Shown piece after piece: positions 3,585-35,790 of a stretch of 38,166 bases of DNA. The stretch comes from Nemertoderma westbladi (taxonomy: Eukaryota; Animalia; Xenacoelomorpha): contig JAUCBJ010005446.1 in assembly GCA_032718475.1 (NCBI GenBank), positions 1 through 38,166 of the forward strand. The letters are read 5' to 3'. Numbering within the stretch: the stretch's first letter is position 1; each line of letters begins with the position of its first letter. The notes beneath the pieces were generated by a model. It was not told the DNA's origin, did no database searches, and saw only the letters and a program-made list of their open reading frames with translations. The position numbers and the translations under genes are program-made.

Positions 3585-4503
3585 TGGTTGTACTGTAGTT
3601 ATTGGTCAGTGGGTTAATCGCACTTTTTTATTGGTTCCGATACATCTGAAATAAACAACAACAGTATGTAGCGCAGTCGGTGATGGCGTATTTACCATCG
3701 GACATACAGAATATGAGAAATATAAATAATTTAACATTGAATTACTAATTTTTTGTCCGTTTACTGACTTTTTGTGACACTTATTCTTGAAACTGTCAGT
3801 GCCTAGTCTATTTATTTCTGGACTGTCAGATAGTCGATTTGGTAGAACCCCCCCCCCCCCCCCCCCACCCCATATGTTTAACTTTTGATATTGAAAACTT
3901 GATTTTCTTCACATTTGGGTAAACTGAAAAGTGACACATAGCAGCAGAAAGTCTTGTAGTGATTCACGATCTAGTGGTACCCAAGGCGTACTACAGTACA
4001 TACTCTACTATATAGTACGCACGCCTTGGTGGTACACCTATGTTGTCATCGCTGCGCCCAGCCATAGGGGGACTTTGATGCGCCCATATTGTTCGGCTGG
4101 AATCTTAAATTTATTCTTTACTCCTTAAGGTGAATTTTATAGAAATTTGGGTCCTAAATAAACTCCCAAAAGAACCACCCAAAAGAACCAAATAGAACCC
4201 AAAATAACCTAAATTTGTTATAAACATTAGATTTTTACCTCCAAATCTGCTGGCAGACGTCCTTTTGCTGAGATTTTGTACCAACCATACTTGTGCTTGA
4301 ATCTATTCTTCGAATTAACTAACCTGGCTCTTAACCCGACTTAATAGAATACTGACATTCTACTGTAAGTTACTTACTAAGTCAGACTGTAAAACTCAAA
4401 CACACAGTAGTGGAAAGATACCAATAACTACAATACGTAGGCCTAATGTAACGTTAAGGCCTACGTAATTAACGTATCAGCTCTACAAACTTGTAGCGTT
4501 GAA

Positions 4504-7500
4504 GGGCCGCGGTTGGGAGGTTGGGAGGGCCGCGGTTAGGAGGGGGCATCTAAAGGGCCGCGGTTAGGAGGTTGGGAGGGTTGCGGTTGGGAGGTTGGGA
4601 GGGCCGCGGTTGGGAGGGGGCATCTAAAGGGCCGCGGTTAGGAGGTTGGGAGGGCTGCGGTTGGGAGGGCCGGGGTTGGGAGGGCCGCGGTTAGGAGGGG
4701 GTATCTAAAGGGCCGCGGTTAGGAGGTTGGGAGGGCCGGGGTTGGGAGGTTGGGAGGGTTGCGGTTGGGAGGTTGGGAGGGCCGCGGTTGGGAGGTTGGG
4801 AGGGCCGCGGTTAGGAGGGGGTATCTAAAGGGCCGCGGTTAGGAGGTTGGGAGGGCCGGGGTTGGGAGGTTGGGAGGGCCGCGGTTAGGAGGGGGTATCT
4901 AAAGGGCCGCGGTTAGGAGGTTGGGAGGGCTGCGGTTGGGAGGGCCGGGGTTGGGAGGGCCGCGGTTAGGAGGGGGTATCTAAAGGGCCGCGGTTAGGAG
5001 GTTGGGAGGGCCGGGGTTGGGAGGTTGGGAGGGCCGCGGTTGGGAGGGCCGCGGTTAGGAGGGGCATCTAAAGGGCCGCGGTCAGGAGGTTTGGAGGGCC
5101 GCGGTTGGGAGGTTGGGAGGGCCGGGGTTGGGAGGTTGGGAGGGCCGCGGTTGGGAGGTTGGGAGGACCGCAGTTGGGAGGTTGGGAGGGCCGCGGTTAG
5201 GAGGGGGCATCTAAAGGGCCGCGGTTAGGAGGTTGGGAGGGCCGCGGTTGGGAGGGCCGCGGTTAGGAGGTTGGGAGGGCCGCGGTTGGGAGGGCCGGGG
5301 TTGGGAGGTTGGGAGGGCCGCGGTTGGGAGGTTGGGAGGGCCGGGGTTGGGAGGTTGGGAGGGCCGCGGTTGGGAGGTTGGGAGGGCCGGGGTTGGGAGG
5401 TTGGGAGGGCCGCGGTTGGGAGGGCCGCGGTTAGGAGGGGCATCTAAAGGGCCGCGGTTAGGAGGGGGCATCTAAAGGGCCGCGGTTAGGAGGTTGGGAG
5501 GGCCGCGGTTGGGAGGTTGGGAGGGCCGCGGTTGGGAGGTTGGGAGGGCCGCGGTTAGGAGGGGGCATCTAAAGGGCCGCGGTTAGGAGGGGGCATCTAA
5601 AGGGCCGCGGTTAGGAGGTTGGGAGGGCCGCGGTTGGGAGGGCCGCGGTTAGGAGGTTGGGAGGGCCGCGGTTGGGAGGGCCGGGGTTGGGAGGTTTGGA
5701 GGGCCGCGGTTGGGAGGTTGGGAGGGCCGGGGTTGGGAGGTTGGGAGGGCCGCGGTTGGGAGGGCCGCGGTTAGGAGGGGCATCTAAAGGGCCGCGGTTA
5801 GGAGGGGGCATCTAAAGGGCCGCGGTTAGGAGGTTGGGAGGGCCGCGGTTGGGAGGTTGGGAGGGCCGCGGTTGGGAGGTTGGGAGGGCCGCGGTTAGGA
5901 GGGGGCATCTAAAGGGCCGCGGTTAGGAGGGGGCATCTAAAGGGCCGCGGTTAGGAGGTTGGGAGGGCTGCGGTTGGGAGGTTGGGAGGGCCGCGGTTAG
6001 GAGGTTGGGAGGGCTGCGGTTGGGAGGTTGGGAGGGCCAAGGTTGGGAGGGCCGCGGTTAGGAGGGGGCATCTAAAGGGCCGCGGTTAGGAGGGGGCATC
6101 TAAAGGGCCGCGGTTAGGAGGTTGGGAGGGCTGCGGTTGGGAGGTTGGGAGGGCCAAGGTTGGGAGGGCCGCGGTTAGGAGGGGCATCTAAAGGGCCGCG
6201 GTCAGGAGGTTGGGAGGGCCGCGGTTGGGAGGTTGGGATGGCCGGGGTTGGGAGGTTGGGAGGGCCGCGGTTGGGAGGTTGGGAGGGCCGCAGTTGGGAG
6301 GTTGGGAGGGCCAAGGTTGGGAGGGCCGCGGTTAGGAGGGGGCATCTAAAGGGCCGCGGTTAGGAGGTTGGGAGGGCCACGGTTGGGAGGTTGGGAGGGC
6401 CGCGGTTAGGAGGGGGCATCTAAAGGGCCGCGGTTAGGAGGTTGGGAGGGCTGCGGTTGGGAGGTTGGGAGGGCCAAGGTTGGGAGGGCCGCGGTTAGGA
6501 GGGGCATCTAAAGGGCCGCGGTCAGGAGGTTGGGAGGGCCGCGGTTGGGAGGTTGGGAGGGCCGGGGTTGGGAGGTTGGGAGGGCCGCGGTTGGGAGGTT
6601 GGGAGGGCCGCAGTTGGGAGGTTGGGAGGGCCGCGGTTAGGAGGGGGCATCTAAAGGGCCGCGGTTAGGAGGTTGGGAGGGCCGCGGTTGGGAGGTTGGG
6701 AGGGCCGCGGTTGGGAGGGGGCATCTAAAGGGCCGCGGTTAGGAGGGGGCATCTAAAGGGCCGCGGTTAGGAGGTTGGGAGGGCTGCGGTTGGGAGGTTG
6801 GGAGGGCCGCAGTTGGGAGGGCCGCGGTTAGGAGGGGGCATCTAAAGGGCCGCGGTTAGGAAGTTGGGAGGGCCGCGATTGAGAGGTTGGGCGGACCGCG
6901 GTTAGGAAGGGGCATCTAAAGGGCAGCGGTTAGGAGGGGGCATCTAAAGGGCAGCGGTTAGGAGGGGGCATCTAAAGGGCAGCGGTTAGGAGGGGGCATC
7001 TAAAGGGCAGCGGTTAGGAGGGGGCATCTAAAGGGCAGCGGTTAGGAGGGGGCATCTAAAGGGCCGCGGTTAGGAGGTTGGGAGGGCCACGGTTGGGAGG
7101 TTGGGAGGGCCGCGGTTAGGAGGGGGCATCTAAAGGGGCGCGGTTAGGAGGTTGGGAGGGCCGCGGTTAGGAGGTTGGGAGGGCCGCGGTTGGGAGGTTG
7201 GGAGGGCCGCGGTTGGGAGGTTGGGAGGGCCGCGGTTAGGAGGGGGCATCTAAAGGGGCGCGGTTAGGAGGTTGGGAGGGCCGCGGTTAGGAGGTTGGGA
7301 GGGCCGCGGTTGGGAGGTTGGGAGGGCCGCGGTTGGGAGATTGGGAGGGCCGCGGTTGGGAGGTTGGGAGGGCCGGGGTTGGGAGGTTGGGTGGGCCGCG
7401 GTTAGGAGGGGGCATCTAAAGGGCCGCGGTTAGGAGGTTGGGAGGGCCGCGGTTAGGAGGTTGGGAGGGCCGCGGTTGGGAGGTTGGGAGGGCCGCGGTT

Positions 7501-9553
7501 GGGAGGTTGGGAGGGCCGCGGTTAGGAGGGGGCATCTAAAGGGCCGCGGTTAGGAGGTTGGGAGGGCCGGGGTTGGGAGGTTGGGAGGGTTGCGGTTGGG
7601 AGGTTGGGAGGGCCGCGGTTGGGAGGTTGGGAGGGCCGCGGTTAGGAGGGGGCATCTAAAGGGCCGCGGTTAGGAGGTTGGGAGGGCCGGGGTTGGGAGG
7701 TTGGGAGGGTTGCGGTTGGGAGGTTGGGAGGGCCGCGGTTGGGAGTTTGGGAGGGCCGGGGTTGGGAGGTTGGGAGGCCCGCGGTTAGGAGGTTGGGAGG
7801 GCCGCGGTTGGGAGGTTGGGAGGGCCGCGGTTGGGAGGTTGGGAGGGCCGCGGTTAGGAGGGGGCATCTAAAGGGCCGCGGTTAGGAGGTTGGGAGGGCC
7901 GGGGTTGGGAGGTTGGGAGGGTTGCGGTTGGGAGGTTGGGAGGGCCGCGGTTGGGAGGTTGGGAGGGCCGCGGTTAGGAGGGGGCATCTAAAGGGGCGCG
8001 GTTAGGAGGTTGGGAGGGCCGCGGTTAGGAGGTTGGGAGGGCCGCGGTTGGGAGGTTGGGAGGGCCGCGGTTGGGAGATTGGGAGGGCCGCGGTTGGGAG
8101 GTTGGGAGGGCCGGGGTTGGGAGGTTGGGAGGGCCGCGGTTAGGAAGTTGGGAGGGCCGCGATTGAGAGGTTGGGCGGACCGCGGTTAGGAAGGGGCATC
8201 TAAAGGGCAGCGGTTAGGAGGGGGCATCTAAAGGGCAGCGGTTAGGAGGGGGCATCTAAAGGGCAGCGGTTAGGAGGGGGCATCTAAAGGGCAGCGGTTA
8301 GGAGGGGGCATCTAAAGGGCCGCGGTTAGGAGGTTGGGAGGGCCACGGTTGGGAGGTTGGGAGGGCCGCGGTTAGGAGGTTGGGAGGGCCACGGTTGGGA
8401 GGTTGGGAGGGCCGCGGTTAGGAGGGGGCATCTAAAGGGGCGCGGTTAGGAGGTTGGGAGGGCCGCGGTTAGGAGGTTGGGAGGGCCGCGGTTGGGAGGT
8501 TGGGAGGGCCGCGGTTGGGAGGTTGGGAGGGCCGCGGTTAGGAGGGGGCATCTAAAGGGGCGCGGTTAGGAGGTTGGGAGGGCCGCGGTTAGGAGGTTGG
8601 GAGGGCCGCGGTTGGGAGGTTGGGAGGGCCGGGGTTGGGAGGTTGGGAGGGCCGCGGTTAGGAGGGGGCATCTAAAGGGCCGCGGTTAGGAGGTTGGGAG
8701 GGCCGCGGTTAGGAGGTTGGGAGGGCCGCGGTTGGGAGGTTGGGAGGGCCGCGGTTGGGAGGTTGGGAGGGCCGCGGTTAGGAGGGGGCATCTAAAGGGC
8801 CGCGGTTAGGAGGTTGGGAGGGCCGGGGTTGGGAGGTTGGGAGGGTTGCGGTTGGGAGGTTGGGAGGGCCGCGGTTGGGAGGTTGGGAGGGCCGCGGTTA
8901 GGAGGGGGCATCTAAAGGGCCGCGGTTAGGAGGTTGGGAGGGCCGGGGTTGGGAGGTTGGGAGGGTTGCGGTTGGGAGGTTGGGAGGGCCGCGGTTGGGA
9001 GGGCCGGGGTTGGGAGGTTGGGAGGCCCGCGGTTAGGAGGTTGGGAGGGCCGCGGTTGGGAGGTTGGGAGGGCCGCGGTTGGGAGGTTGGGAGGGCCGCG
9101 GTTAGGAGGGGGCATCTAAAGGGCCGCGGTTAGGAGGTTGGGAGGGCCGGGGTTGGGAGGTTGGGAGGGTTGCGGTTGGGAGGTTGGGAGGGCCGCGGTT
9201 AGGAGGTTGGGAGGGCCGCGGTTAGGAGGTTGGGAGGGCCGCGGTTGGGAGGGCCGCGGTTGGGAGGTTGGGAGGGCCGCGGTTGGGAGGTTGGGAGGGC
9301 CGCGGTTGGGAGGTTGGGAGGGCCGCGGTTAGGAGGGGGCATCTAAAGGGCCGCGGTTAGGAGGGGGCATCTAAAGGGCCGCGGTTAGGAGGGGCATCTA
9401 AAGGGCCGCGGTTAGGAGGTTGGGAGGGCCACGGTTGGGAGGTTGGGAGGGCCGCGGTTAGGAGGGGGCATCTAAAGGGGCGCGGTTAGGAGGGGGCATC
9501 TAAAGGGCCGCGGTTAGGAGGGGGCATCTAAAGGGCCGCGGTTAGGAGGGGGA
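4504..9553 (+). repeat. G-rich complex satellite (~5 kb)
   Basis: Mosaic of GGTTGGGAG, GGGCCGCGGTT(A/G)GGAG and the 28-bp module GGGCCGCGGTTAGGAGGGGGCATCTAAA; extreme G/C strand skew. Confidence 0.97.
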
Positions 9554-9944
9554 TAACCGATGAGTGGATGAGTAATCGGATAGTATTATTCCTTGAAAAG
9601 GAATTCAGACATTTCGCCATCTAGCTGGAGACTGTTGAAAAGATGGTGTCTAAATTCTCTAAAAAATCTAATCTTTTGCTCATATTGATGCCTGCAAATT
9701 TTCAATTCGACAGCTTTAAACCGACAATGTTGGATCCTCGGCCACCCCACTAACAGAATCAGTTCGCAGAGGCTCTGCAAACTTTGTGGCTCGCCCCACA
9801 TAAGAGTGAAAACAAATAACTCAAATTAAATAGTTATGCTACGCTTGACCTTACTGTTGGCCTATACTAAATCAGTCGCAGTCTTGATATATGTGAGATT
9901 TCGGTTTGGATACATATTGGTTATATACAGTTGTAGGTCTACTG

Positions 9945-10570
9945 TCACAGAGGATAGCTTTTCCAACAAAAAACAATAAACGATTTCTTTAGCAATACAG
10001 GGAAAAGAGTAGGTTACAGAGGCGGGCTTTTCTAACCAAAACAATAAACGTCTTCTTTAGCAATACAGGGAAATGAGTAGGTTACAGAGACGGGCATTTC
10101 TAACCAAAACAATAAACGTTTTCTTTAGTAATACAGGGAAAGGAGCAGGTTACAGAGGCGGGCTTTTCTAACCAAACCAATAAACGTTTTCTTTAGCAAT
10201 ACAGGGAATGGAGTAGGTTACAGATGTGGGCTTTTCTAACCAAAACAATAAACATTTTTTTAGCAATACCTGGAAAGGAGCAGGTTATAGAGGCGGGCTT
10301 TTTTAACCAAAACAATAAACATTTTCTTTAGCAATACCTGGAAAGGAGCAGGTTACAGAGGCGGGCTTTTTTAACCAAAACAATAAACGTTTTCTTTAGT
10401 AATACAGGGAAAGGAGCAGGTTACAGAGGCGGGCTTTTCTAACCAAACCAATAAACGTTTTCTTTAGCAATACAGGGAATGGAGCAGGTTGCAGATGTGG
10501 GCTTTTCTAACTAAAACAATAAACTATTCCTGTAAGAATACAGGGAAAGGAACGAGTTTTTCTAACCTAA
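9945..10570. repeat. 68-bp minisatellite, ~9 diverged copies
   Basis: Unit approximately GGCGGGCTTTTCTAACCAAAACAATAAACGTTTTCTTTAGCAATACAGGGAAAGGAGCAGGTTACAGA. Confidence 0.92.
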
Positions 10571-10975
10571 ACAAAAAAATACAGAATCTCATTACCAATT
10601 GAGATAAAAGAGCACTTTACAGAGTAGGTTATTTAAAATAAACTACACTACCTGAGTACTACAATTCTAAAATAATTAGTAAATTAATTTTCTACTAAAT
10701 ATAAATAATAGTGATAGGAAATTTCACAGTATCAGTAGGTCTACGTATTGCAGTTCCGCAATATTATTATTTCTAGGGTTTATGCATTACCTTTATACCA
10801 CTCTTTCCTTATACTGATACTGGTAATGATGGCCTAGGAGAACAGCTCAGTAGTACCGGATAACTTAAATCGGAAAAATAAAACTAAAAAAAAGAACCAA
10901 AAGTCTAAATAATGTCCTTAAAGCGACACAATGAAGTACGCGAGGTATTAGTGGACCTACTCGAATCTATGGTGG

Positions 10976-11127
10976 GAGCAGCAGTAGTTCCAGTACTCCT
11001 CTATGGGAGTCCATACTGGGCTCTAACTGCTGAGGACACCAAATCTATGGATGGCACAAGGATGCTACGCCGGGTTCACTGTGTCAAGTACAATGAACAC
11101 ATCTCCAACCAGACACTATATAACATT
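10976..11127 (+). mobile_element. RTE-clade LINE fragment (C-terminal region)
   Basis: Translates AAVVPVLLYGSPYWALTAEDTKSMDG-RMLRRVH...HISNQTLYNI, closely matching 14345-14512. Confidence 0.85.
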
Positions 11128-11340
11128 ATTGATAGTAACAATGTGTTGGCAAGCTGTATTTTTCGAGGTATTTGTTATTATACATTTATTATAGGAAGGG
11201 ATCTTGGGGTCTTAGCCTCGAATGATAAGTTTATTTTACCGAAAATAACTTATCTTTTATTGGCGCAATTGTAGGACTAATCCCATCACAGGGCTAATAA
11301 AATGGCAGCTGGCTTTGAAATTAATACTCCATATCTCAAG

Positions 11341-11402
11341 AACCTGTGGCCTAGTGGTTGTAGTCTCGGCTTCCACCTCGAGGTCCCAGGTTCGAATCCG
11401 AC
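11341..11402 (+). promoter_or_regulatory. tRNA-derived (Gly-TCC-like) Pol III head: A box + B box
   Basis: A box TGGCCTAGTGG 11347-11357; anticodon-arm remnant CTCGG-CTTCCAC-CTCGAG; B box GGTTCGAATCC 11389-11399. The acceptor stem is not intact. Confidence 0.8.
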
Positions 11403-11445
11403 ACCACGCTGATGAGACCCAGTAAGGTCGAAACGCGTACGTGGT
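11403..11445 (+). ncRNA. Minimal type I hammerhead ribozyme
   Basis: Stem I ACCACG/CGTGGT (6 bp perfect); core CTGATGA 11409-11415; stem II GACC-cagtaa-GGTC; GAAA 11430-11433; palindromic mini stem III ACGCGT; cleavage triplet GTA 11437-11439. Confidence 0.9.
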
Positions 11446-11536
11446 TTGGAGAGATATGAGATATTAATTTCAAGAAAAAATTACGCGATTCCTAAATTTG
11501 TACACTACCCGGTTAAAAAGTACGCTTTGGCTTATG

Positions 11537-11745
11537 CTTTGGCAGCCTTATTGAGTGAATAAGCATGGTGGACAGCCCATGACTTTCTTGAGACGCATCT
11601 TAAAAAAGGACACTGGCCTTGAAGATGCGGATGATCTAGCAAATGTCATATGTGTGATAGGGAGTTGTGGCGGCGCAATTTTGTCGACAGGCCGGCACAG
11701 CATTCTTGAAAATGCAGCTGCAATGCAGCATGCCGATCCTAGTAG
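11537..11745 (+). mobile_element. RTE-clade LINE 3' end fragment
   Basis: NKHGGQPMTFLRRILKKDTGLEDADDLANV; near-identical to 14618-14805. Confidence 0.85.
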
Positions 11746-11759
11746 TTTGGTGGGACCCT

Positions 11760-12443
11760 TTCAGGTCAAATGGAAATAAGTGACGCTGAACCAAGGCTAT
11801 TTATTAGACAGTGCAAGAATCGAAATCATTAGGTTTCACCAAGGCTCCCGTCGCTATGCAGTAAGGGATGCGAGAGAAGGACCTTGAAAGAGTTGTGCGA
11901 GGAGTGAGGCGGCGTCTGCAGTTCGTGCTCCTCCAGAAGAGCTCACTGTACCTTCGTGGCAGTCGGCGATCAAGGCACACCCTGGGATCGTCGATGGAGA
12001 GCTGACATGCGGGGATAGGACAGTGCAACGCTGTATTATAGGGGATACATACTGCAATTAGAAATTACCTCACAAACTCTGCGCAGAAAGAGTCCCGACT
12101 CAAACAGACTACAGCGGCCAAGAATGCAGTTAAGGCTGCATCTAGGTCCCTGAACAGGCAGTACTCTGTTATTCTACAGGAGCTAATAAACCAACAGGTT
12201 GATGCCATCAATGATGCTGACGACAGCAGGCAATCATCCCAGGCATGGAAATCGATCAACTTGCTTACTGGGCGGAAAAGCCAACCAACCACCAAGGTTA
12301 AGGCTGAATCACCAGCCGATCGCCTCAATGGTTGGAAGGCCCACTTTGAAAAGCTCCTCAATAATGACAGGGTATTGCCTGATAACTTTATAGAAGTAAA
12401 AGTGTCTGAGTCTGTACTCCCAGATATTCCCATTGGCGATATC
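11760..12443 (+). mobile_element. RTE-clade LINE fragment (linker upstream of RT)
   Basis: Frame reads QAWKSINLLTGRKSQ...RLNGWKAHFEKLLN, typical of the region before the RT in LINE ORFs. Its last 88 bp recur at the start of the RT copy (13144-13231). The 5' boundary is approximate. Confidence 0.75.
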
Positions 12444-12756
12444 ACTTAAACATTTAGAAGAGAATGATGAAAATAAAGAAGAGATATTGAGACAAATATT
12501 AGGAAACAAAAATCAAATGCGGAAATTTATTAAACAAATGGAAGAAAATGAGGAAAATAGGGAAGAGATATTAAGACAGGTTCTGGGAAATAAAAGTAAA
12601 TTACTGAAAATTAATGAACAATTGAATAAAATTAAGAAACAGTTGGGTAATGAGGAAGATGAAAGTAAAGTAAATCAACCAGCTTTTACTAATTTTCAAA
12701 GACCTATGATAAAAAACTCTCGTTCAGTATATGCCCGCGCAGGACGACGCTATTGA
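12433..12756 (+). CDS. Orphan coiled-coil ORF with internal peptide duplication (start uncertain)
   Basis: EENDENKEEILRQILGNK and EENEENREEILRQVLGNK repeat in frame; located between two RTE pieces. Confidence 0.35.
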   Translation: MAISLKHLEENDENKEEILRQILGNKNQMRKFIKQMEENEENREEILRQVLGNKSKLLKINEQLNKIKKQLGNEEDESKVNQPAFTNFQRPMIKNSRSVYARAGRRY

Positions 12757-12783
12757 CATTTGTTTGTTTGAGTTCCTTTCATA

Positions 12784-12893
12784 ATAGTATTAGGGCTATT
12801 TATCCAAAACAATTATATTAGTATTAGGACTATTTATCCATAACAATTATATTAGTATTAGGACTATTTATCCATAATAATTATATTAGTATT
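12784..12893. repeat. 34-bp tandem repeat, ~3 copies
   Basis: TAGTATTAGGACTATTTATCCATAACAATTATAT repeated with few substitutions. Confidence 0.8.
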
Positions 12894-13143
12894 ATAAATG
12901 TATTTACCCCACAATATTTATTATTATTAGGTCTATTTATTCAAGAAATTATATGTTTTTATCATATACTTTGCAAAAATTGGTCGACTAAGTCATAATT
13001 TTTAAAATTTAAATAAGGGTTGAGTTATTTTATAAAGTTAAGAAGAGTGAATCAATGGAGGCAACCTGAAGTCTAATCTCTTGGCCTTTACTCATAAGAC
13101 CGCACATTAACTTCCAAGGTTGCATACTCAATAATGAAGGAAG

Positions 13144-14810
13144 CCTCAATAATGACAGGGTATTGCCTGATAACTTTATAGAAGTAAAAGTGTCTGAGTC
13201 TGTACTCCCAGATATTCCCATTGGTGATATCTCCTTTGCAGAAGTGAAGGCTGCTGCAAAGAGCATTAAGACCAATCAATCGTGCCAGTGGAATAGATGG
13301 TGTTCCCCCTGAGGTCTTTAAAATACCTGAGTGTTTAAAGCTCATCTATCCTATCATAGTAGACATGTACCGAACAACAAGAGTCCCGCAAGAAATGAAA
13401 ACAAATAAGTTGGTGCCAGTTCCCAAGAAGGGCAACCTAACCCTCTATGGTTCTTTTCGGGGAATCTCATTGATCTCGATTGCTGCAAAGCTATACAATT
13501 GAATTCTATTAAATCTCATCAGGGATTCCATTGAGAGACTGCTCCTTGGAAATCAGAATGGGTTCCGTAAAGGTCGTGGGACCATGGAGCCCATTTTGGC
13601 ACTTAGAAGGATAATTGAAGAGTTATCAAAAAAGAAAGACAGGCATCTGGCTATTATATTTGTTGACTTCTTCAAGGCCTTTGATTCAGTCTCTCGCTCA
13701 CGTATGTTCAGCATACTTTCATTATATGGGATTCCTGATGAAATTATTGCAGCAATCAGATCAGTACACGATGGTTCGACAACATTTGTGTCTACTGTTG
13801 ACGGTGACATAGAACCATTTGAAGTGTTATGGGGCGTCTTCCAGGGAGACACACTTGCACCATTATTGTTCATAATTGTGGTTGACTATGTTCTACGCAT
13901 GTCATTAGATCATCATAATGATGATTGGGTGATGATAACTCCACCTACTGGCTCCAGAAGTCGAGGAAATCCTGCCAAGTACCAAACTGATCTAGACTTT
14001 GCTGATGACTTAGGAGTACTCTCAGAATCACTAGAGGGAGCCCAACGGCTCCTCAGCTCATTAGAACATGCTGCTTCTAGTGTTGGTCTTTTTATTAACT
14101 CCAGAAAGACCAAAATTTTGACAGTTGACTTTGAAAGTCCTCAGCATGTCTCAGATCGGATGAGCATAAGCTCAAAGGACGGTATGCTTGAGCATGTAGA
14201 CAACTTCTGTTACCTGGGATAAAGGATCCGGAAGTCAGATGAGGACCTTCGAATACGTAAGGGAAGGGCATGGGCAGCCTTGAATAGGCTTTCCAGGATT
14301 TGGAAGTCACCGAGAAATAATCGGAAACTTAAGGTCCGATTATTTAGAGCAGCGGTAGTTGCAGTACTCCTCTATGGGAGTCCATGCTGGGCTCTAACTG
14401 CTGATCAGCTGATGACACAAAATCTCTGGATGGCACATTCACAAGAATGCTACGCCGGGTTCATTGGGTCATGTACAATTCACACATCTCCAACCAGACA
14501 CTATATAACATTGGAGGTGTCTCATTGATTCCCCCAAGCTTGACACTAGAACAAAATCGCCTCCGCTTTGCAGGTCATTGCTTTCGCCGTGATGACCAGC
14601 CAGTGCATAATCTTGTACTTTGGCAGCCTCATGGAGTGAATAAGCATGGTGGACAGGCCATGACTTTCTTGAGACGCATCTTAAAAGACACTGGCCTTGA
14701 AGATGCGGATGATCTAGCAAATGTCATGGCGGCGCAATTTTGTCGACAAGCCGGCACAGCATTCTTAAAAATGCAGCTACAATGCAGCATGCCGATCCTA
14801 GTAGCATTAT
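13144..14810 (+). mobile_element. 5'-truncated, disrupted RTE-clade non-LTR retrotransposon (reverse transcriptase pseudogene)
   Basis: Motifs VPVPKKGNL..FRGISLISIAAKLYN, QNGFRKGRGT, FVDFFKAFDSV, GVFQGDTLAPLLF, DLDFADDLG, FCYLG, LLYGS, RLRFAGHCFR. An in-frame stop near 13500 and downstream frameshifts disrupt it. Confidence 0.93.
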
Positions 14811-16723
14811 ACACACCTATTTCGTTCTTTTGGGTTCTTTTGGGTGTTTTTTGGGTTCTATTGGGTTCTTTTAGGTGGTTCTATTGGGTTCTTGTAGGTG
14901 GTTCTATTGGGTTCTTTGGGGTATTTTTTGGTTCTTTTGGGAGTTTAGTAGGACCGTAGAAATTTTACTAATTTACCATTCTCATTTTAATTATTAATTC
15001 GCACATTTGTAACTTTTCAGGGTCGATATCGAATGACTTCTGTTGCAAAAACAAAGGGCGGCATTTAATTTGTGAGAATGGAATTTGCACAAAACCCATG
15101 GAAGAGTATTAGAAAAAACAAAGTTATAAATAATTTAATAACTTTACGACCGGCCATAACTAGTGGATAACTTTATTTACGTGGCACTCAACAGTGGTAG
15201 ATGTTGTGTTAATTATTGTATAATATGGTTTAATATACAATGTCAAAAAATTTAGCTGGAAATAAGTTGCGATAAATATATGACATTTTTAATGACTTTA
15301 ATGACATTTAATATTTCTTTAAATGTCATTTTTAATGTTATTTTGTGAGATAGTTAACTGTAATTTCTGCCGCGAGTTAACATTATTTGGGTTGGCAGTT
15401 TTGGTTCATTGTATATTCCAACTAATTAACTACAAGTCATACTTCAACCTTAAATAATATAGACTTTATTTTATACCTTATTGTATTGAAAGAGTACCGG
15501 TAGAGTTGCACAAAATTGAGCTTTTATGTATTAGACAGACAGACCTGACAACCGTTCCGATATACACAGAAAATAGTTGCAATAATGATCTGGTCTGATC
15601 TGATTATTTTCTTAATAATATAATTCGAGCTTCTTCGGTGTGTTATTGATAAATAGCTTTCAGCCGATAAAAACAAAAACATGCGTCTTTTGAACTCATC
15701 AACTTACTCAACGAAATTCAGATGTCTTTACAGATCATGGCATCTCGCATCAATCTATCAATCTCACCATGTTGGACTGGTTCGATAGTGAATAAGTCTC
15801 GAAGACACCGCAATGCAAGCCCGACAGATAGTAGGCTGACCTACAGTATAACTCATTGGCTTTATCTTTTATTGATCAAAGATATTACCATATAGAAATT
15901 GCTCGCTAATTGGCAGATTATAAAATCGATAACTTTCATTAGTAAAGACCAAAATCGAATTTTACTTATATTTTAAGTCATTAGAATGATAACTAGAACC
16001 TCATAAGACGAAACTGTAGAATTATTATTACGCAGGTACGGTAAATGTGAACAATACATTAAGTACACAATATATTAATCAGCAGCATCATTGTATTATT
16101 ACTATTTAATCAACTACGCGTAATAGGGAAAAACTATTATTCGTATTCCATAATATTATTTTTTCCCTTTACTGTATTTATAATTAAATTTGTCAACAGC
16201 AGTAGGCCTATAAATTACTAACTATTTATTTACTACTTTGAAAATAAATGAGCTTTATTTCCCTACGAACCCGAGATGTATAATTCACGAGCGGCACCGA
16301 GTGAAATAAACATCAAGGGGGTTGTAAGGGAAATATATCTGTTGGTTTTTCAAGTAATACGTTTTAACTTCTTAATTTTGACTTTCATCTCTTGAATTGA
16401 GGTTCAGTGTGCCGCATTTGATTCTTCCACATCGTCCGATGTTAAGAGTTTTGTGTAGCTGCATTCCCGCCGCATTCCCGCCGCATTCCCGCCGCGTTTC
16501 CGTAGTTGTGTTTGAACACAACCGGTACACAGTAATATGGCTATCCCAGCTTTATCTAGGTTCTCGAATCCTTAATCCCGCGAAATACCGATAAAGTAAA
16601 TCACTTGCATTTCTAGGTTAGGCATAAATCTCGGACCCGGATATAACTTATTTTTAAAGTTGATAGAGAGCGGGGTATAGAAAGGCAATTTTGAAAAGAA
16701 ACATTAATTTACGTGACTTTAGA

Positions 16724-24756: not shown

Positions 24757-25060
24757 CCAGCCTGTACACAATCTTGTACTTTGGCAGCCCCAAGGAGAAA
24801 ATAAGCATGGTGGATGACTTTCTTGAGACGCCTCCTAAAGGACACCGGCCTTGAAGATGCGGATAATCTTGCGAAAGTCATGGTGGATAAGGAGTTGTGG
24901 CGGTGTAACTTTGTTGATAAGCCGGCATAGCATTCTTAAAACACGCTGCGTTGGGCTTGCTAATTATTGTGGATTGCATGGTCATGGCAAAAATATTCTT
25001 GTTCAGCCGGCATAGCATCTCAATGTGCAGCTTCAATGCAGCAGTCCGATTATATTATAG
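24757..25060 (+). mobile_element. RTE 3' end fragment (continuing from ~23697-23731)
   Basis: QPVHNLVLWQPQGENKHGG..TFLRRLLKDTGLEDADNLAKV, matching 14597-14800. Confidence 0.85.
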
Positions 25061-26817: not shown

Positions 26818-27949
26818 TCACGTGACGGGATCCAGGGTAACGATGAGTTCGTTATCCCCCACTGTATCTCCGACAGCCAAGTGAATGGAGGCCACGACGC
26901 CAGCGGTTTCCGCCAGCAAGGAGTTTTGCATCTTCATTGCCTCGACGACGCAGACCTCCTGTCCCGGAACGACCCGCTGCCCCGGTTCCACGGACACCGA
27001 TATCAGCGAGCCGGGCATCGGGGAGCGAACCTCGAGGCCGGAGTTCGTCGCGTCCCGTCGCGACGGCATGGTCGCTAGGTAACCGTGGTAACGGGCGTCC
27101 ATGGCGTGGCAACGGAATGCGGTCCCGTGGTAACGCAGGGAGACAGCGCCGTCGGAGTGCCGCTCCAACAGCTGCATGAGAAGCGACGACTCGTTAACAA
27201 CCAATGGAATCGCCCCGTCATCGACGGAGAAATCGTGGATGAGAAACTCCTCGTTGTCGATCCGAACCCGGAAGATCCCGTCCACAAACCGAACCTCCGC
27301 CAACGGTGACTCACCCTCGAGCATAACAACCACCAACCAATTGCTCGTAGACTTAGAATAGGAGCTCACTGATTGGTTAATAAATTCTGAGGAGTTAATT
27401 TCACCTTTAATATAGAAACAAGCGGCTATAGCAGCGAGTTGGTAAACCTCGTAAGGGCTTAGTCGCTTCCCTTTGAAACCGTCCGGGTAGACAAGTTGCA
27501 GATAGTCTGTGGTGACGTCACCAGCGATAAAGCGCTCTTCCACGAGGATGTCTCGGAGGAGCGCCACGTTGTGGAGGAGTCCGCGGATGACGTAGCGATC
27601 CAAGGCCTCGCAGGAGGTCCGCAACGCCTCCGTGCGGTTCACGCCGTAACCCACGAGTTTGGAGATCATGCTATCGTAGTAGATGGAAATCTCGGAACCC
27701 TCGTCGACGCCGCCGTCGACTCGGACGTTGGGCATGTCGGGCTCGATGTACCGGTGCAGTCGTCCCACCGACGGGAGGCCGAAGCTACGGTACGGGTCCT
27801 CCGCGTATACGCGGCACTCTACCGCGTGGCCCTTGAGCTGCACGTCGGATTGGCTGTATTCCAGAGGTAAACCTCTACCGACTCGCAACATCTGGTAAAC
27901 TATGTCGATCCCCGTCGTACATTCCGTTATGGGATGCTCCACCTGCAAT
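26818..27949 (-). CDS. PCCA: Propionyl-CoA carboxylase alpha chain, terminal exon (biotin carboxylase C-term, BT and biotinyl domains)
   Basis: LQVEHPITECTTGIDIV...GHAVECRVYAEDPY.SFGLPSVGRL...GSEISIYYDSMISKL...RSPMPG...VVEAMKMQNSL (biotinylation motif AMKM); acceptor TTAG directly upstream. Confidence 0.93.
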
Positions 27950-28161
27950 CTAATTATAATTGCTGAATGAATATAATATAATATTACTAATTATTCATTA
28001 TGAATAATTTTCAGCAATTTATTTTTGACTTTTCTCAAAAAAAGGTATAATAAAATATATACCATTTGGTACACCCGCCAATTTGTATTTTGAAAATTTT
28101 AACAGAAAATCCGATCGGTTATTGGAAATAAGTGCAATATTATGGTTTTGTTCAGAAATGG

Positions 28162-28260
28162 AAAAAATTAGAAAGCGCGACACCGGGGGTTGAACCAGCG
28201 CTATACGTACGTTTCAGCCTATCAGGCCTCATCAGTAGTGCTAACCAGTTCAGCCACTTG
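28162..28260 (-). ncRNA. tRNA-like Pol III unit with a minimal type I hammerhead ribozyme (28197-28242) between the A and B boxes
   Basis: Minus strand: TGGCTGAACTGG (A box) tt AGCACTA CTGATGA GGCCT-gat-AGGCT GAAAC-GTAC-GTA TAGCGCT GGTTCAACCCC (B box) ... TTTTTT. Stem I pairs 6/7, stem II 5 bp, stem III palindromic ACGTACGT. Confidence 0.88.
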
Positions 28261-28469
28261 TCCCTGACATTCACTCTCCCACCTAATCCACTTCTATTGA
28301 ACGGGCAGTCTTAAGTTGCATATATTCTATCTCTAACAGCGGACCTACCGGCCTCAAGTATGTTAGAGTGAAACAGGAGGGAAGTACAAATAAATAAATA
28401 TTCAGCTCGAGTATTGCTGCCAGGTGATAATAATCAATTAATTGGAAATAAGAGACATCGAATATCCGG

Positions 28470-28912
28470 TACCATCTCGATTGCTGCAAAGCTATACAAT
28501 AGAATTCTATTAAATCGCATCAGGGATCCCATTGAGAGACTGCTCCAAAGCCATATCCTCTTGCAGGACATTGCTTTCGCCGTGAGGACCCCCAGCCAGT
28601 GCATAATCTTGTACTTTGGCAGCCTCATGGAGTGAATAATAATGGTTGACAGCCCATGACTTTCTTGAGACGCATCTTAAAGGACACTGGCCTTGAAGAT
28701 GTGGATGATCTAGCAAATGTCATGGGCGATAGAGAGTGTTGTGGCGACGCAATTTTGTTGACAAGCCGGCACAGCATTCTTAATGTACGCTGCATTGGAG
28801 CATACCAATTATTGTGGATAAAAATTGCTTGGTGGTGACAAAATGTTTTTATTAAACTGGCATAGCCTCTCAATGTGCAGCTGCAATGCAGCAGGCCGAT
28901 TATAGTAGTAGT
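28470..28912 (+). mobile_element. Internally deleted RTE derivative in a PCCA intron (antisense to PCCA)
   Basis: ISIAAKLYNRILLNRIRDPIERLL (equivalent to 13473-13546) is joined to the 3' region (equivalent to 14568-14805), omitting about 1 kb of RT core. Confidence 0.85.
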
Positions 28913-28944
28913 ATAACAATATATTACAATAAAACAACACACAC

Positions 28945-29108
28945 CTCGTATTCATTTCCAAAAAGTAAAATTTTTTATTTTTATCAACAAGAAACTCTAC
29001 AGTCCCGGCGCCATGGTAACCCACAGACAGAGCCAATGAAATAGCTTGTTTGCCCATTGCGTCTCTCATTGGTTGATCAACAATCGTACTTGGAGCCTCT
29101 TCTATAAC
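28945..29108 (-). CDS. PCCA: PCCA exon
   Basis: [55 protein letters not shown]; AG/GT borders. Confidence 0.94.
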
Positions 29109-29287
29109 CTAATGAAATAATTGAATTGTAAGTATTACAACTACCGGTGTGTAACACAATAACAGGTACATAGATGTTTTGAAAAATTAAGATAATAAGG
29201 TAGGCTAGTGAAAAAGCAACACATTGAGGAATAACAATCTACAAATCGATTAACTAAGATATCTTAAGTACTCCCAATGTTCAATAT

Positions 29288-29366
29288 ATCTAGCTCAGTT
29301 GAAGAGTTATCACACGGCCTGTGAGATGCCGCTGGTTCGAAACCAGGTCCCAGCGATCATTTTTTG
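29288..29366 (+). mobile_element. tRNA-derived SINE head / tRNA pseudogene
   Basis: A box TAGCTCAGTTG (29291), B box GGTTCGAAACC (~29334-29344), T-run terminator ~29360-29366; no intact cloverleaf and no hammerhead core. Confidence 0.55.
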
Positions 29367-30264
29367 TCACAGGTTCTACCCATATGGTTCGGTTATTCTA
29401 TTTGAAACTCACCAGCGGTTGTAGGACTTCAACACTAATAATATACATTATATGTATGGTTTATTGGTTTACGTATTTATGATTGGGTGAGTAAGAATTT
29501 ATATTTTCGATTTCTAACTTATTTTACAAGCATTTGAAAAAGAATGTCAATCGATTCCTACTACAATCGGCACCTACTGTTCATATTTTTTGTCCTTATA
29601 GTTATTTATAGGTACCGATAGAAAGATGACGATACTGATGTTTTCCGTTCAAGGATTCCGAAATTAAATATCGTTGATAAATAGCTGATTTATTGGCGAT
29701 CTTAGTTGTATGTTTCGTTGATAAAGCTAATGGGCTGAAAAAATTGCAGAATTTATTTTACGAAAATAATGTTTAAAATTTTTGTCTGACTTTTTAACTT
29801 ATTCTTTATTTAACTATTTCGCTTTAGCTTTTACTGATTTTATTTTAAAGCTTGTACCATTTCGAGGATTTGACTAGATGATATTCCAGAACGTTAATCA
29901 AATAATAAAACCAAAAATGCTAAATTAAACTAGCCTCGCAAAAGATCATACAATTAAACATTTAACTGCTAAATTGATAAATAATTAACAACGTAATTAC
30001 TGATCGCTAATTGGATATATTTTATTATCCGCATTTTTGGAAGAATCTTGATAATTAATTTATTGACCGCAAAATGCGGACAGAAAAGTCTTTATTTTAA
30101 AAATAATTAAGAAATATTTTAAATAAAATATGTTTAAGAGTAATATGCTTTACTATTCCTCGAAAATACATAAAGTCTGACAAAAAACGTTGAGGCTTTC
30201 TTTTTGTAAAATAAATAGTTATTTCTGCAAAAAATGCGATACCGATATATTTTAACAAACTGAC

Positions 30265-30339
30265 CTTTTGGTTTCGTCTCTGGATCGAGCATTCCCGTTC
30301 ATTGAGATGAATTGCGTTGCCAAGTGTGTCACATAGAAT
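30265..30339 (-). CDS. PCCA: PCCA exon
   Basis: [25 protein letters not shown]; AG/GT borders, phase 0. Confidence 0.94.
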
Positions 30340-30822
30340 CTAGAAAATAAAACAAAGTTAATAAACCAAAACTGTATGGTAGATTCGTTTTGTACGAATA
30401 GATTATTCTACCGTATTCTACCGAATACGGGAAATATAAAACGGGAAAGAACCCACCTCATCCTCAGATGTACATATTTATCACATCTACATATTATGCG
30501 ATGAAGATAGCATGCGATGAAGGGGGAATATAACATATCTCTCAATACAACAACCATTTTTTGCAGGTCGGAGCCCAAATCCAATCCCAACCTAATTTTT
30601 CAAATTTCAATCATATGATACGAAATTTGGTATGAAGATAGTTTGACAATTTTTCTCGCTGCTGGCAGAGCGGGATTTTTCAATTTTCAAATTATTTCGC
30701 TACAACAATCCGTTAAGCAATTAAGCAATATTCTATTTAGCAATATTTAACCATCTCTGTTGTCTTTTAATATTGGTTAGCTGTACACAGTGGGTTAGGT
30801 TTAACCCCATTGGTTAGCACTA

Positions 30823-33800
30823 CAGTGAGTTCACCTGATTGGTTAGCAGTGGGATGTATTAACAGTGCAGTAGGTCACCGTGGGATGCATTAACAGTGCA
30901 GTAGGTCACCGTGGGATGCATTAACAGTGCAGTAGGTCACCGTGGGATGCATTAACAGTGCAGTAGGTCACCGTGGGATGCATTAACAGTGCAGTAGGTC
31001 ACCGTGGGATGCATTAACAGTGCAGTAGGTCACCGTGGGATGCATTAACAGTGCAGTAGGTCACCGTGGGATGCATTAACAGTGCAGTAGGTCACCGTGG
31101 GATGCATTAACAGTGCAGTAGGTCACCGTGGGATGCATTAACAGTGCAGTAGGTCACCGTGGGATGCATTAACAGTGCAGTAGGTCACCGTGGGATGCAT
31201 TAACAGTGCAGTAGGTCACCGTGGGATGCATTAACAGTGCAGTAGGTCACCGTGGGATGCATTAACAGTGCAGTAGGTCACCGTGGGATGCATTAACAGT
31301 GCAGTAGGTCACCGTGGGATGCATTAACAGTGCAGTAGGTCACCGTGGGATGCATTAACAGTGCAGTAGGTCACCGTGGGATGCATTAACAGTGCAGTAG
31401 GTCACCGTGGGATGCATTAACAGTGCAGTAGGTCACCGTGGGATGCATTAACAGTGTAGTAGGTCACCTGATTGGTTAGTAGTGGGATACATTAACAGTG
31501 CAGTATGTCACCTGATTGGTTAGCAGTGGGATACATTAACAGTGCAGTAGGTCACCTGATTGGTTAGCAGTGGGATACATTAACAGTGTAGTAGGTCACC
31601 TGATTGGTTAGCAGTGGGATACATTAACAGTGCAGTAGGTCACCTGATTGGTTAGCAGTGGGATACATTAACAGTGCAGTAGGTCACCGTGGGATGCATT
31701 AACAGTGCAGTAGGTCACCGTGGGATGTATTAACAGTGCAGTAGGTCACCGTGGGATGCATTAACAGTGCAGTAGGTCACCGTGGGATGCATTAACAGTG
31801 CAGTAGGTCACCGTGGGATGCATTAACAGTGCAGTAGGTCACCGTGGGATACATTAACAGTGCAGTAGGTCACCGTGGGATGCATTAACAGTGCAGTAGG
31901 TCACCGTGGGATGCATTAACAGTGCAGTAGGTCACCGTGGGATGCATTAACAGTGCAGTAGGTCACCGTGGGATGCATTAACAGTACAGTAGGTCACCGT
32001 GGGATGCATTAACAGTGCAGTAGGTCACCGTGGGATGCATTGACAGTGCAGTAGGTCACCGTGGGATGCATTAACAGTGCAGTAGGTCACCGTGGGATGC
32101 ATTAACAGTGCAGTAGGTCACCGTGGGATGCATTAACAGTGCACTAGGTCACCGTGGGATGCATTAACAGTGCAGTAGGTCACCGTGGGATGCATTAACA
32201 GTGCAGTAGGTCACCGTGGGATGCATTAACAGTACAGTAGGTCACCGTGGGATGCATTAACAGTGCAGTAGGTCACCGTGGGATGCATTGACAGTGCAGT
32301 AGGTCACCGTGGGATGCATTAACAGTGCAGTAGGTCACCGTGGGATGCATTAACAGTACAGTAGGTCACCGTGGGATGCATTAACAGTGCAGTAGGTCAC
32401 CGTGGGATGCATTGACAGTGCAGTAGGTCAGTGTGGGATGCATTAACAGTGCAGTAGGTCACCGTGGGATGCATTAACAGTGCAGTAGGTCACCGTGGGA
32501 TGCATTAACAGTGCAGTAGGTCACCGTGGGATGCATTGACAGTGCAGTAGGTCACCGTGAGATACATTATTAACAGTGCAGTAGGTCACCGTGGGATGTA
32601 TTAACAGTGCAGTAGGTCACCGTGGGATGTATTAACAGTGCAGTAGGTCACCGTGGGATGCATTAACAGTGCAGTAGGTCACCGTGGGATGCATTAACAG
32701 TGCAGTAGGTCACCGTGGGATGCATTAACAGTGCAGTAGGTCACCGTGGGATGCATTAACAGTGTAGTAGGTCACCTGATTGGTTAGTAGTGGGATACAT
32801 TAACAGTACAGTAGGTCACCGTGGGATGCATTAACAGTGCAGTAGGTCACCGTGGGATGCATTAACAGTGCAGTAGGTCACCGTGGGATGCATTAACAGT
32901 GCAGTAGGTCACCGTGGGATGCATTGACAGTGCAGTAGGTCACCGTGAGATACATTATTAACAGTGCAGTAGGTCACCGTGGGATGCATTAACAGTGCAG
33001 TAGGTCACCGTGAGATACATTATTAACAGTGCAGTAGGTCACCGTGAGATACATTATTAACAGTGCAGTAGGTCACCGTGGGATGTATTAACAGTGCAGT
33101 AGGTCACCGTGGGATGCATTAACAGTGCAGTAGGTCACCGTGGGATGTATTAACAGTGCAGTAGGTCACCGTGGGATGCATTAACAGTGCAGCAGGTCAC
33201 CGTGGGATGTATTAACAGTGCAGTAGGTCACCGTGGGATGTATTAACAGTGCAGTAGGTCACCGTGGGATGCATTAACAGTGCAGTAGGTCACCGTGGGA
33301 TGCATTAACAGTGCAGTAGGTCACCGCGTGGGATGTATTAACAGTGCAGTAGGTCACCGTGGGATGCATTAACAGTGCAGTAGGTCACCGTGGGATGCAT
33401 TAACAGTGCAGTAGGTCACCGTGGGATGCATTAACAGTGCAGTAGGTCACCGCGTGGGATGTATTAACAGTGCAGTAGGTCACCGTGGGATGCATTAACA
33501 GTGCAGTAGGTCACCGTGGGATGCATTAACAGTGCAGTAGGTCACCGTGGGATGCATTAACAGTGCAGTAGGTCACCGTGGGATACATTAACAGTGCAGT
33601 AGGTCACCTGATTGGTTAGCAGTGGGATACATTAACAGTGCAGTAGGTCACCTGATTGGTTAGCAGTGGGATACATTAACAGTGCAGTAGGTCACCGTGG
33701 GATACATTAACAGTGCAGTAGGTCACCTGATTGGTTAGCAGTGGGATACATTAACAGTGCAGTAGGTCACCTGATTGGTTAGCAGTGGGATACATTAACA

Positions 33801-34155
33801 GTGCAGTAGGTCACCGTGGGATACATTAACAGTGCAGTAGGTCACCTGATTGGTTAGCAGTGGGATACATTAACAGTGCAGTAGGTCACCTGATTGGTTA
33901 GCAGTGGGATACATTAACAGTGCAGTAGGTCACCGTGGGATACATTAACAGTGCAGTAGGTCACCTGATTGGTTAGCAGTGGGATACATTAACAGTGCAG
34001 TAGGTCACCTGATTGGTTAGCAGTGGGATACATTAACAGTGCAGTAGGTCACCTGATTGGTTAGCAGTGGGATACATTAACAGTGCAGTAGGTCACCTGA
34101 TTGGTTAGCAGTGGGATACATTAACAGTGCAGTAGGTCACCTGATTGGTTAGCAG
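30823..34155. repeat. 31-bp satellite with a 44-bp variant (~100 units) filling a PCCA intron
   Basis: Unit GTGGGATGCATTAACAGTGCAGTAGGTCACC; the variant adds TGATTGGTTAGCA. Confidence 0.98.
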
Positions 34156-34174
34156 AACGGTAGATTCACGTTAC

Positions 34175-34399
34175 CTGCATTTCAATGTGTCTCGGATTCT
34201 CGATAAACTTCTCGATGAGAAGTCTGTTGTCCCCGAAGCTACTGAGCGCCTCTTGCGACGAGAGTCTGTATCCCTGAAGCACGTCGGCGTCGTTCCACGC
34301 GATACGCATTCCCTTACCGCCGCCACCGGCTGACGCCTTAATCATAACCGGGTAACCGATAGAGTTAGCGATAGTAACGGCATGGCAAGGTGTCTCAAC
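34175..34399 (-). CDS. PCCA: PCCA exon (ATP-grasp region); upstream exons not found in the window
   Basis: [75 protein letters not shown]. Confidence 0.95.
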
Positions 34400-35790
34400 C
34401 TGGAGGAATTAAAGGGATAACTTTTCATAACAATGGGACTCACAATTAGCAAATATGAACATGCATTTTATACACCACGGCTCGGAATATAATGTTGTAA
34501 TTCAGTGACATGCCCCCACAACCCCCCCCCCCCCCCCCCACCCCCGAAATAAACAACAAATTGTTTTTCTACAAGGAATTTGAAACATAGATAGTTTCAT
34601 ATCTTTATTCCTTCCTGTTTGAGCCAGAATCTTTATTTTCACTTTCAACCTTTAGTGTAGATACAAGCATTAAAAAAGTGTCTCCGGTGATATTTACCTT
34701 ATAAAGTATTATTATATTTACCTTTACATTATACTATGTACTATATGTACTACGTTACACATTATACACCTATGTTAATTAACGGCCCGACAAGTTAACC
34801 GCGTTTATTGATGCCCGTCCGGTATTTTCAGCATCTGTTAAAACGGAACCCAACTTGTAGCAATATCGGAGTTTCGTGACTATGAGAATCATCTGAGATA
34901 TAGGCGTTCAAATAGTGCAATAGTTACCGTTCGGGGGAGGCTATAAGATAATCACAGTATATTACGGGTCATGGTGTACTTTGTGTCAGAGAACTTTATC
35001 GTACAAATTTCAGTACAGTGTAAGTAACTATGGCTGAAAAACTACGATCTGTGATGGCGTATGCCCCCTTTAATGAAATTATGTTGGAATTACGTGAGTG
35101 TCAGTGCGACTTGTGTGATTAATCTCAAATTTAGTCCCAAATTAATCGCCTCATTTTCCTAGCCACTGTTACAGTTTCTAACTATATATGTACAGTCTAC
35201 GAGTTCTACATATTATGTACAAGAATTATTTAATTGTACGTAATTTAATTTCGTGGTAATATATTGTATTATTAATAATCCACACAGCCAATTAATGCCA
35301 TCAGGTAATAAAGTTATCGATTAAAATATAATGTGCGGTGTCCGCACCGTACCGGTAAACTACAAACTGCACACAATTTCAATTAACACCCATAAACATA
35401 AAGCACATAAAGATCGATGAACAAAAGAAGAAAAAGCGCCAAAATCTAGTGTTGACGAGGGGACCACCACCCAAACTCTGGGTTGGTTGGTTGGTTGGTT
35501 GGTTGACGAGGGGACCACCACCCAAACTTTTTAAATGATAAGTTTAGAATTTCGTTAATACGTAATAAATAAAGAGACCCAGCGAAATTAGATTTTTTTA
35601 GATTTTTTGAGACTTACAAGATAATAACTGTCTATATTTACTACTACTATTAGGTCGAGCAAACTCGGATATATTCTATAGGAGTATTACGATTTATGAT
35701 ATTTGTTGAGTTTTATTGGAAATATGATATTTGTTTTGTTGTTTCATTCATTATTTTTAGGTGATTAGTTGCTATGGGTTCCGTTATGGG

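Follow-up and report, generated by a model that had tools for sequence, protein, structure and literature searches.

A complete type I hammerhead ribozyme motif was found between the A box and the B box of a tRNA-type promoter, on the minus strand of the 38,166-nt stretch of Nemertoderma westbladi DNA analysed here (the window). We think it somewhat probable that this sequence is a copy of a non-LTR retrozyme with a unit of ~341 nt, moved by a Penelope-like element (PLE), in which the hammerhead has replaced the anticodon arm between the A/B boxes and new copies are templated by a circle. The anatomy of the motif, the repeat family, the boundaries of the insertion, its target-site duplication (TSD), inverted junctions elsewhere and one closed 341-nt contig were observed directly, and every step of the cycle beyond the DNA anatomy is one that we infer.

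Anatomy of the ribozyme and its promoter boxes

The motif occupies positions 28256-28162 of the minus strand, where an A box, a complete type I hammerhead, a B box and T6 were confirmed in this order in the sequence. The A box (28245-28256) was recognised as a motif match, with promoter motifs as in PMC10886601. It is followed by the 5' strand of stem I (28236-28242, with a mismatch at 28239 in the window copy), the catalytic core CUGAUGA (28229-28235, identified by sequence pattern), stem II of 4 bp with a 5-nt loop (28216-28228, with a G-U at pair 10.1-11.1 in the window copy), and GAAA (28212-28215), which forms one block with stem III and the cleavage triplet (28204-28215). Stem III comprises 2 bp and a palindromic tetraloop in an 8-nt palindrome (28205-28212), the cut is predicted between 28204 and 28203, and the 3' strand of stem I (28197-28203) overlaps the stem of a T-arm-like hairpin that holds the B box (28186-28196). 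T6 (28162-28167), a candidate Pol III terminator, is the sole run of at least four T on the minus strand within the 308-bp insertion described below. An earlier note on this DNA had located the two boxes, the core, the cut and T6, and all of its coordinates matched on recheck.

By sequence, the motif has the features of a type I hammerhead: a core of the form CUGANGA, GAAA, UH, and stems I-III in type I order. Two hammerheads were identified in the window by a type I descriptor, and none of 300 first-order Markov simulations, built on the 26,706 non-satellite bases of the window, contained one. Rfam by itself did not call the hammerhead: the best match at the motif was Hammerhead_3, with a score (19.7 bits, E 0.036 on 121 bases) below the gathering score, which no family reached in the Rfam search of the window. 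The 104-nt motif RNA folded no better than shuffles (z 0.45), and no second copy of the motif family was found within the window. Nor does the motif qualify as a tRNA gene, as ARAGORN found 0 tRNA, the Rfam tRNA model gave no match to the motif, and acceptor pairing is not family-wide.

A D-arm-like hairpin of 3 bp (28254-28240) involves the A box, and the T-arm-like hairpin (28199-28182) has 5 bp and an 8-nt loop. Because both hairpins abut inner stem I, the ribozyme takes the position that the anticodon arm and variable loop have in a tRNA, which bears out the earlier proposal of a hammerhead that stands in for the anticodon arm between the two boxes. The stem lengths (I, 7 bp; II, 4 bp; III, 2 bp with its palindromic tetraloop) agree with the canonical metazoan hammerhead type (canonical and minimal forms are defined in PMC4209133). 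Invertebrate retrozyme ribozymes of coral and mussel cleaved as single motifs, and an axolotl form with a 2-bp stem III cleaved better as a dimer (PMC7229834). A PLE-type minimal ribozyme that is an obligate dimer, as had been suggested, was not supported, since the stems fit the canonical type of invertebrate retrozymes, which in coral and mussel cleaves as a monomer. The self-duplex of the palindrome was computed at -9.8 kcal/mol; dimer action of the hammerhead is possible, and the evidence does not require it.

In 98.5-99.4% of family depth the stem I position 28239, mismatched in the window copy, is Watson-Crick paired, so that most of the family has all 7 bp of stem I; the private mismatch of the window copy likely weakens the predicted cutting of the host pre-mRNA. 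At stem II pair 10.1-11.1, 65-86% of family depth carries G-C and the rest G-U. The palindrome variant 28208 (2.5-14% of depth) and the A-box variant 28249 (5-23% of depth, with the box consensus kept) also maintain pairing through G-U, so that all three helix polymorphisms listed (28216, 28208 and 28249) preserve a pair in this way; no compensatory double change in the ribozyme helices was seen among the listed variants. At a 5% threshold, 20 variant places were listed, of which none fell in the 13 core positions, one in the 12 of the A box and none in the 11 of the B box. As a sign of purifying selection, this depletion (1/36 versus 2.4 expected, P 0.31) is not significant. No variant of T6 was listed in DNA copies. 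Other letters are carried at 28180 in 91-99.5% of depth and at 28261 in 49-98%. The GACA/TGTC remnant of an acceptor stem, which had been put forward earlier and depends on these two positions, is thus present in the window copy only, and was rejected as a family feature.

The A-box nucleotides 28252-28248 can pair with the B-box nucleotides 28195-28191 and thereby extend stem I, and the computed energy of this rod form was lower than that of the cloverleaf-like form (-9.8 versus -7.9 kcal/mol). Such folding would suit a retrozyme that is transcribed by Pol II or other read-through, as a review proposes for all retrozymes (PMC7761336), and in which the boxes, left over from a captured tRNA, persist for their RNA structure or for TFIIIC binding and do not act as promoter of the mobile RNA; T6 and the 176 nt of family sequence upstream are likewise ill-suited to a plain Pol III unit. 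Both boxes nevertheless match promoter motifs at normal spacing, and the common A-box variant stays within the consensus. T6 comes after the boxes as in Pol III genes, and the same window has a second tRNA-headed hammerhead. We therefore regard a purely relic role of the boxes as quite unlikely.

The insertion and its repeat family

Contig depth in the public DNA run X1 rises from the single-copy level in the bin 28126-28138 and returns to it in the bin 28438-28450. These limits, with an exact 12-bp direct repeat at them, define the insertion as 28440-28133 (308 bp, minus strand). The AT-rich 5' copy of the 12-bp TSD lies at 28441-28452 and the 3' copy at 28121-28132, both read on the minus strand; when 200,000 pairs of windows of the same size were drawn at random, 104 shared a 12-mer. 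The host sequence is a 995-bp intron (27950-28944, minus strand, GT..AG) of the propionyl-CoA carboxylase alpha gene, relative to which the element is in the sense orientation. The insertion is a solitary copy of almost the full unit length, not a tandem one, and is circularly permuted relative to the cut site, with 237 nt before and 71 nt after it. Non-LTR retrozymes are non-coding and have a length of 150-450 bp, GC below 50%, a TSD of >4 bp and one type I hammerhead in each unit (Cervera and de la Pena 2020, PMC7229834). The size, GC content (0.425), 12-bp TSD (at the window locus only) and type I motif of the element, together with its repeat family, support the idea, already raised in the earlier note, that it is a retrozyme.

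The family sequence upstream of the tRNA-like part (~176 nt, 28265-28440, minus strand) has high-copy depth throughout and falls outside any A/B-driven Pol III transcript of the window copy. Family sequence also extends beyond the terminator (28133-28161, minus strand), where genomic copies have a common 3' end near 28136-28148. The ~100-nt stretch from the A box to T6 had previously been taken for the mobile unit, that is, a tRNA-ribozyme SINE running from the tRNA-like 5' end to T6. Although A, B and T6 delimit a plausible ~100-nt Pol III transcript and depth peaks over 28140-28255, such a unit is highly improbable and is contradicted for the window copy: the repeat reaches 176 nt further upstream and ~30 nt past T6, the TSD brackets 308 bp, and the closed repeat unit is ~341 nt. 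A SINE is also not what was found at the 3' side, where the element has no A-tail and a fixed end 30 nt after T6. A link to the adjoining RTE-like fragment (28474-28909) was considered and rejected, as repeat depth stops at 28440 and the TSD lies between the two.

Contigs matching the stretch numbered 1,305-1,391 in X1, 2,382 in X2 and 102 in X4, all public DNA runs, and bear out the earlier expectation of a repeat family that keeps the A-box/hammerhead/B-box order. Compared with a summed depth of 33.7 (X1) and 19.6 (X2) in the flank, depth in five bins inside the element was 700-2,600x (X1) and 2,900-7,300x (X2); summed depth is no copy number, and these values can be read only as many hundreds to thousands of copies. 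At 28136, 54 contigs of X1, 48 of X2 and 10 of X4 depart from the stretch and continue in mixed sequence (agreement 0.49-0.64); these heterogeneous loose ends show that copies are dispersed and have a common 3' end. Past 28136, the consensus of the loose ends contains a further short stretch common to the three runs, and nine contigs run on past 28434; the family unit is thus somewhat longer than the window copy. Depth is greater over the 3' part of the element, a pattern expected from 5' truncation. Opposite-strand joints made up 6 of the 15 joints listed in one contig comparison, with 22 more beyond those listed, and 3 of the 15 listed in a second, with 27 more beyond them. Five of 15 listed joints fall at 28198-28215, near the cut, together with a depth step, and the palindrome or inverted stems could cause both. 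Among the joints listed there was no empty-site joint and, in X1, X2 and X4, none going back ~341. Runs X7 and X8, which carry other organism labels, had 0 matching contigs, a result that does not prove absence.

In run X6, whose organism label differs and whose RNA nature is guessed, one contig matched (371 nt, depth 5.5). Its letters 1-34 align to 28207-28174 and its letters 108-368 to 28441-28181 without gaps; by these coordinates letters 342-371 repeat letters 1-30, so that the period is 341 nt. The 30-letter overlap corresponds to a 31-mer assembly (k presumably being 31) of either a circle or a uniform tandem array. Letters 35-107 are unaligned, and the contig has no alignment over 28173-28136, the part that bears T6; its variant letters also occur in DNA runs. 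The contig represents a head-to-tail or circular unit. Tandem units in DNA would assemble into an identical closed contig, so this single contig is no proof of a circular RNA.

The contig would indeed be a DNA tandem array if this Penelope-moved family were copied, like a solo pseudo-LTR, from uncleaved read-through RNA, with a ribozyme that rarely cuts and no circle. A PLE enzyme in vitro achieved insertion without the need for hammerhead cleavage; the RNA that it used had not been processed, and none of the reads stopped at the hammerhead (PMC11167929). An uncleaved template would account just as well for the intact ribozyme inside the window copy, and none of the runs with the family is confirmed as RNA. 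However, X6 contains one single-haplotype closed contig, versus 102-2,382 matching contigs in the DNA runs, and no flanking or variant contigs, which fits one circular or homogeneous species. The core and helices are intact in the family majority, and circles have been obtained from similar repeats in coral, mussel and axolotl (PMC7229834). Copying from uncleaved RNA is accordingly a serious alternative that we nonetheless think unlikely.

Proposed transcription and copying of the element

The published retrozyme model has multimeric RNA cleaved into units, which RtcB ligates and a PLE enzyme then copies. One PLE enzyme has been shown to cut AT-rich DNA and to begin reverse transcription at an internal site (PMC11167929), and PLE insertions include inverted truncated copies (PMC8557442, Fig. 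2 legend). The TSD, inverted joints and fixed 3' end of the present family are in keeping with such behaviour. For the circle-templated retrozyme that we favour, Pol III would start just upstream of the A box, and most transcripts would end at T6 (~100 nt), with read-through of tandem copies giving multimers. Two successive hammerheads would release one unit with the B-box half first and the A-box half last, leaving the promoter split, and a host RtcB-type ligase may close the circle and restore the A-ribozyme-B order. A Penelope-type enzyme would then nick AT-rich DNA and reverse-transcribe from an internal site ~70 nt past the cut; reverse transcription across the ligation junction would produce permuted, often 5'-truncated or partly inverted copies with the promoter intact. 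Since the cut lies between the boxes, the A-ribozyme-B order can come only from a template that spans the cut site, which may be a circle or an RNA that was never cut. The weak point of this cycle is T6, because a ~100-nt Pol III transcript cannot template a 308-bp copy without tandem read-through.

More tentatively, and with considerable doubt, we suggest that the two halves of the element's own Pol III promoter also make up the ribozyme, which cuts between them, that circle-templated copies are thereby selected, and that the ~100-nt transcript is trans-acting. If so, the cleaved linear unit, with B before A, would give promoter-dead DNA, and only copies made across the ligation junction of a circle would regain an A-B promoter; the layout itself would select for circle-templated copies. 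The abundant, T6-terminated ~100-nt transcript would be a natural tRNA-scaffolded hammerhead that can pair through the 8-nt palindrome and may cut other members of the family in trans, copies within host introns among them.

These possibilities bear on two questions, the mode of transcription of animal retrozymes and whether new copies are really templated by circles. A promoter that straddles the cut site makes both questions testable in one element, and the box order in genomic copies would be a record of whether reverse transcription crossed the cut site.

Relation to known elements and other features of the window

The element resembles metazoan non-LTR retrozymes (PMC7229834; Li, Clavereau and Pollet 2026, bioRxiv 10.64898/2026.07.22.740005) in size, GC content, canonical type I hammerhead and TSD, and also in the occurrence of dispersed monomers and, going by the one closed contig, possibly of a head-to-tail or circular unit. 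Whereas described retrozymes are said to lack promoters, those of animals seeming to do so according to a review (PMC7761336), here A/B boxes bracket the ribozyme and T6 follows; the main texts of PMC7229834 and 10.64898/2026.07.22.740005 mention no Pol III or A/B boxes in retrozymes. Circles and cleavage were demonstrated for metazoan retrozymes, while the present family is known from DNA anatomy and a predicted cut. The SINE-like Sm-alpha/Sj-alpha repeats of schistosomes likewise combine a tRNA-derived Pol III promoter with a type I hammerhead and are high-copy and often tandem (PMC6765202, PMC2770079). Their promoter, however, precedes the ribozyme and lies whole on one side of the cut, a layout taken for Sm-alpha from later descriptions and not from the box positions in Ferbeyre 1998, whereas in our element the ribozyme lies between the boxes; a whole promoter upstream of the hammerhead was found instead at another element of the window (11347-11460). 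The head of the schistosome repeats is called tRNA-Gln by tRNAscan-SE, in contrast to our element, which has lost the anticodon arm and is called by no tRNA program.

PLE pseudo-LTRs and their non-autonomous derivatives are alike in having a type I hammerhead, a palindromic stem III, tandem or inverted structures, AT-rich targets and reverse transcription that begins at a fixed internal point beyond the 3' side of the ribozyme. Unlike them, the window element has no ORF, a hammerhead that is canonical and not minimal (PMC4209133), and tRNA boxes. In tRNA-derived SINEs and Helenus TRIMs (PMC10886601), A/B boxes were also captured in a non-autonomous retroelement, and the boxes of Helenus are also inside a longer repeat unit. 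Differing from both, our element has a ribozyme, no A-tail and no visible LTR/PBS/PPT layout, and its unit begins 176 nt before the tRNA-like part.

Among the titles and abstracts listed in full-text searches of the literature, none dealt with a natural hammerhead between A and B boxes; an example that went unnoticed may be present among the many invertebrate retrozyme sequences in the supplement of PMC7229834. The internal layout, with the ribozyme inside the promoter, is apparently undescribed and occurs in a retroelement of known kind. It would also provide a natural counterpart to ribozymes placed in the anticodon arm of a tRNA. Cotten and Birnstiel reportedly engineered such cassettes in 1989, in which the anticodon arm of a tRNA carries a hammerhead and the internal promoter boxes flank it; these were synthetic, trans-cleaving and non-mobile.

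A family-like pattern gave 0 matches in viral contigs. A general pattern of core, GAAAC and B box occurred at 189 loci (10 viral, 116 metagenome and 63 prokaryotic-genome), in collections that hold little animal DNA, so that the scan says nothing on rarity in animals. Both stems were formed at 0, 1 and 0 of these loci, respectively, in no case with an A box; none of the 189 was similar by BLASTN, with the window copy passing as positive control. At the metagenome loci L021, L075, L082 and L103, tRNA-like genes are interrupted close to the anticodon by an insert in which CUGAUGA and GAAA occur but no hammerhead stems form. These inserts are probably ordinary tRNA introns.

The second tRNA-plus-hammerhead element of the window (11315-11473, plus strand) is unrelated and has the Sm-alpha order: an A box from 11347, an anticodon-arm-like hairpin, a B box (11389-11398) and a hammerhead core at 11409. 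Its type I hammerhead, with a 1-bp stem III and a palindromic tetraloop, matched Rfam HH9 (26.6 bits, E 9.7e-5). A 23-bp imperfect inverted repeat encloses the whole element (folding z -6.8), after which no T4 run was seen and around which no TSD was found. A broken LINE lies at 12042-14959 (plus strand), with an RT domain (PF00078) at 13503-14219, and is presumably RTE-like, judging from the look of its protein. Several 3' fragments of this LINE, 76-96% alike, are present at 10909-11274, 11531-11745, 24757-25057 and 28474-28909 (plus strand), and one adjoins each hammerhead element.

Four tandem arrays were also observed, comprising a 71-bp period of ~99% identity (384-3020), a G-rich, strand-skewed array (4500-9550), a 68-bp period (9944-10551) and a 31-bp period that fills an intron of the carboxylase gene (30814-34155). 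Two convergent genes encode a pyridoxal-dependent decarboxylase (PF00282; 16667-23170, plus strand) and propionyl-CoA carboxylase alpha (26818-34408, minus strand). The last exon of the latter is 1.1 kb long and G+C-rich, in a gene that is otherwise AT-rich. The host is a divergent animal without a near relative among the best 120 matches listed for the carboxylase protein (7,996 candidates scored), which were 44-50% identical and nearly all animal where named.
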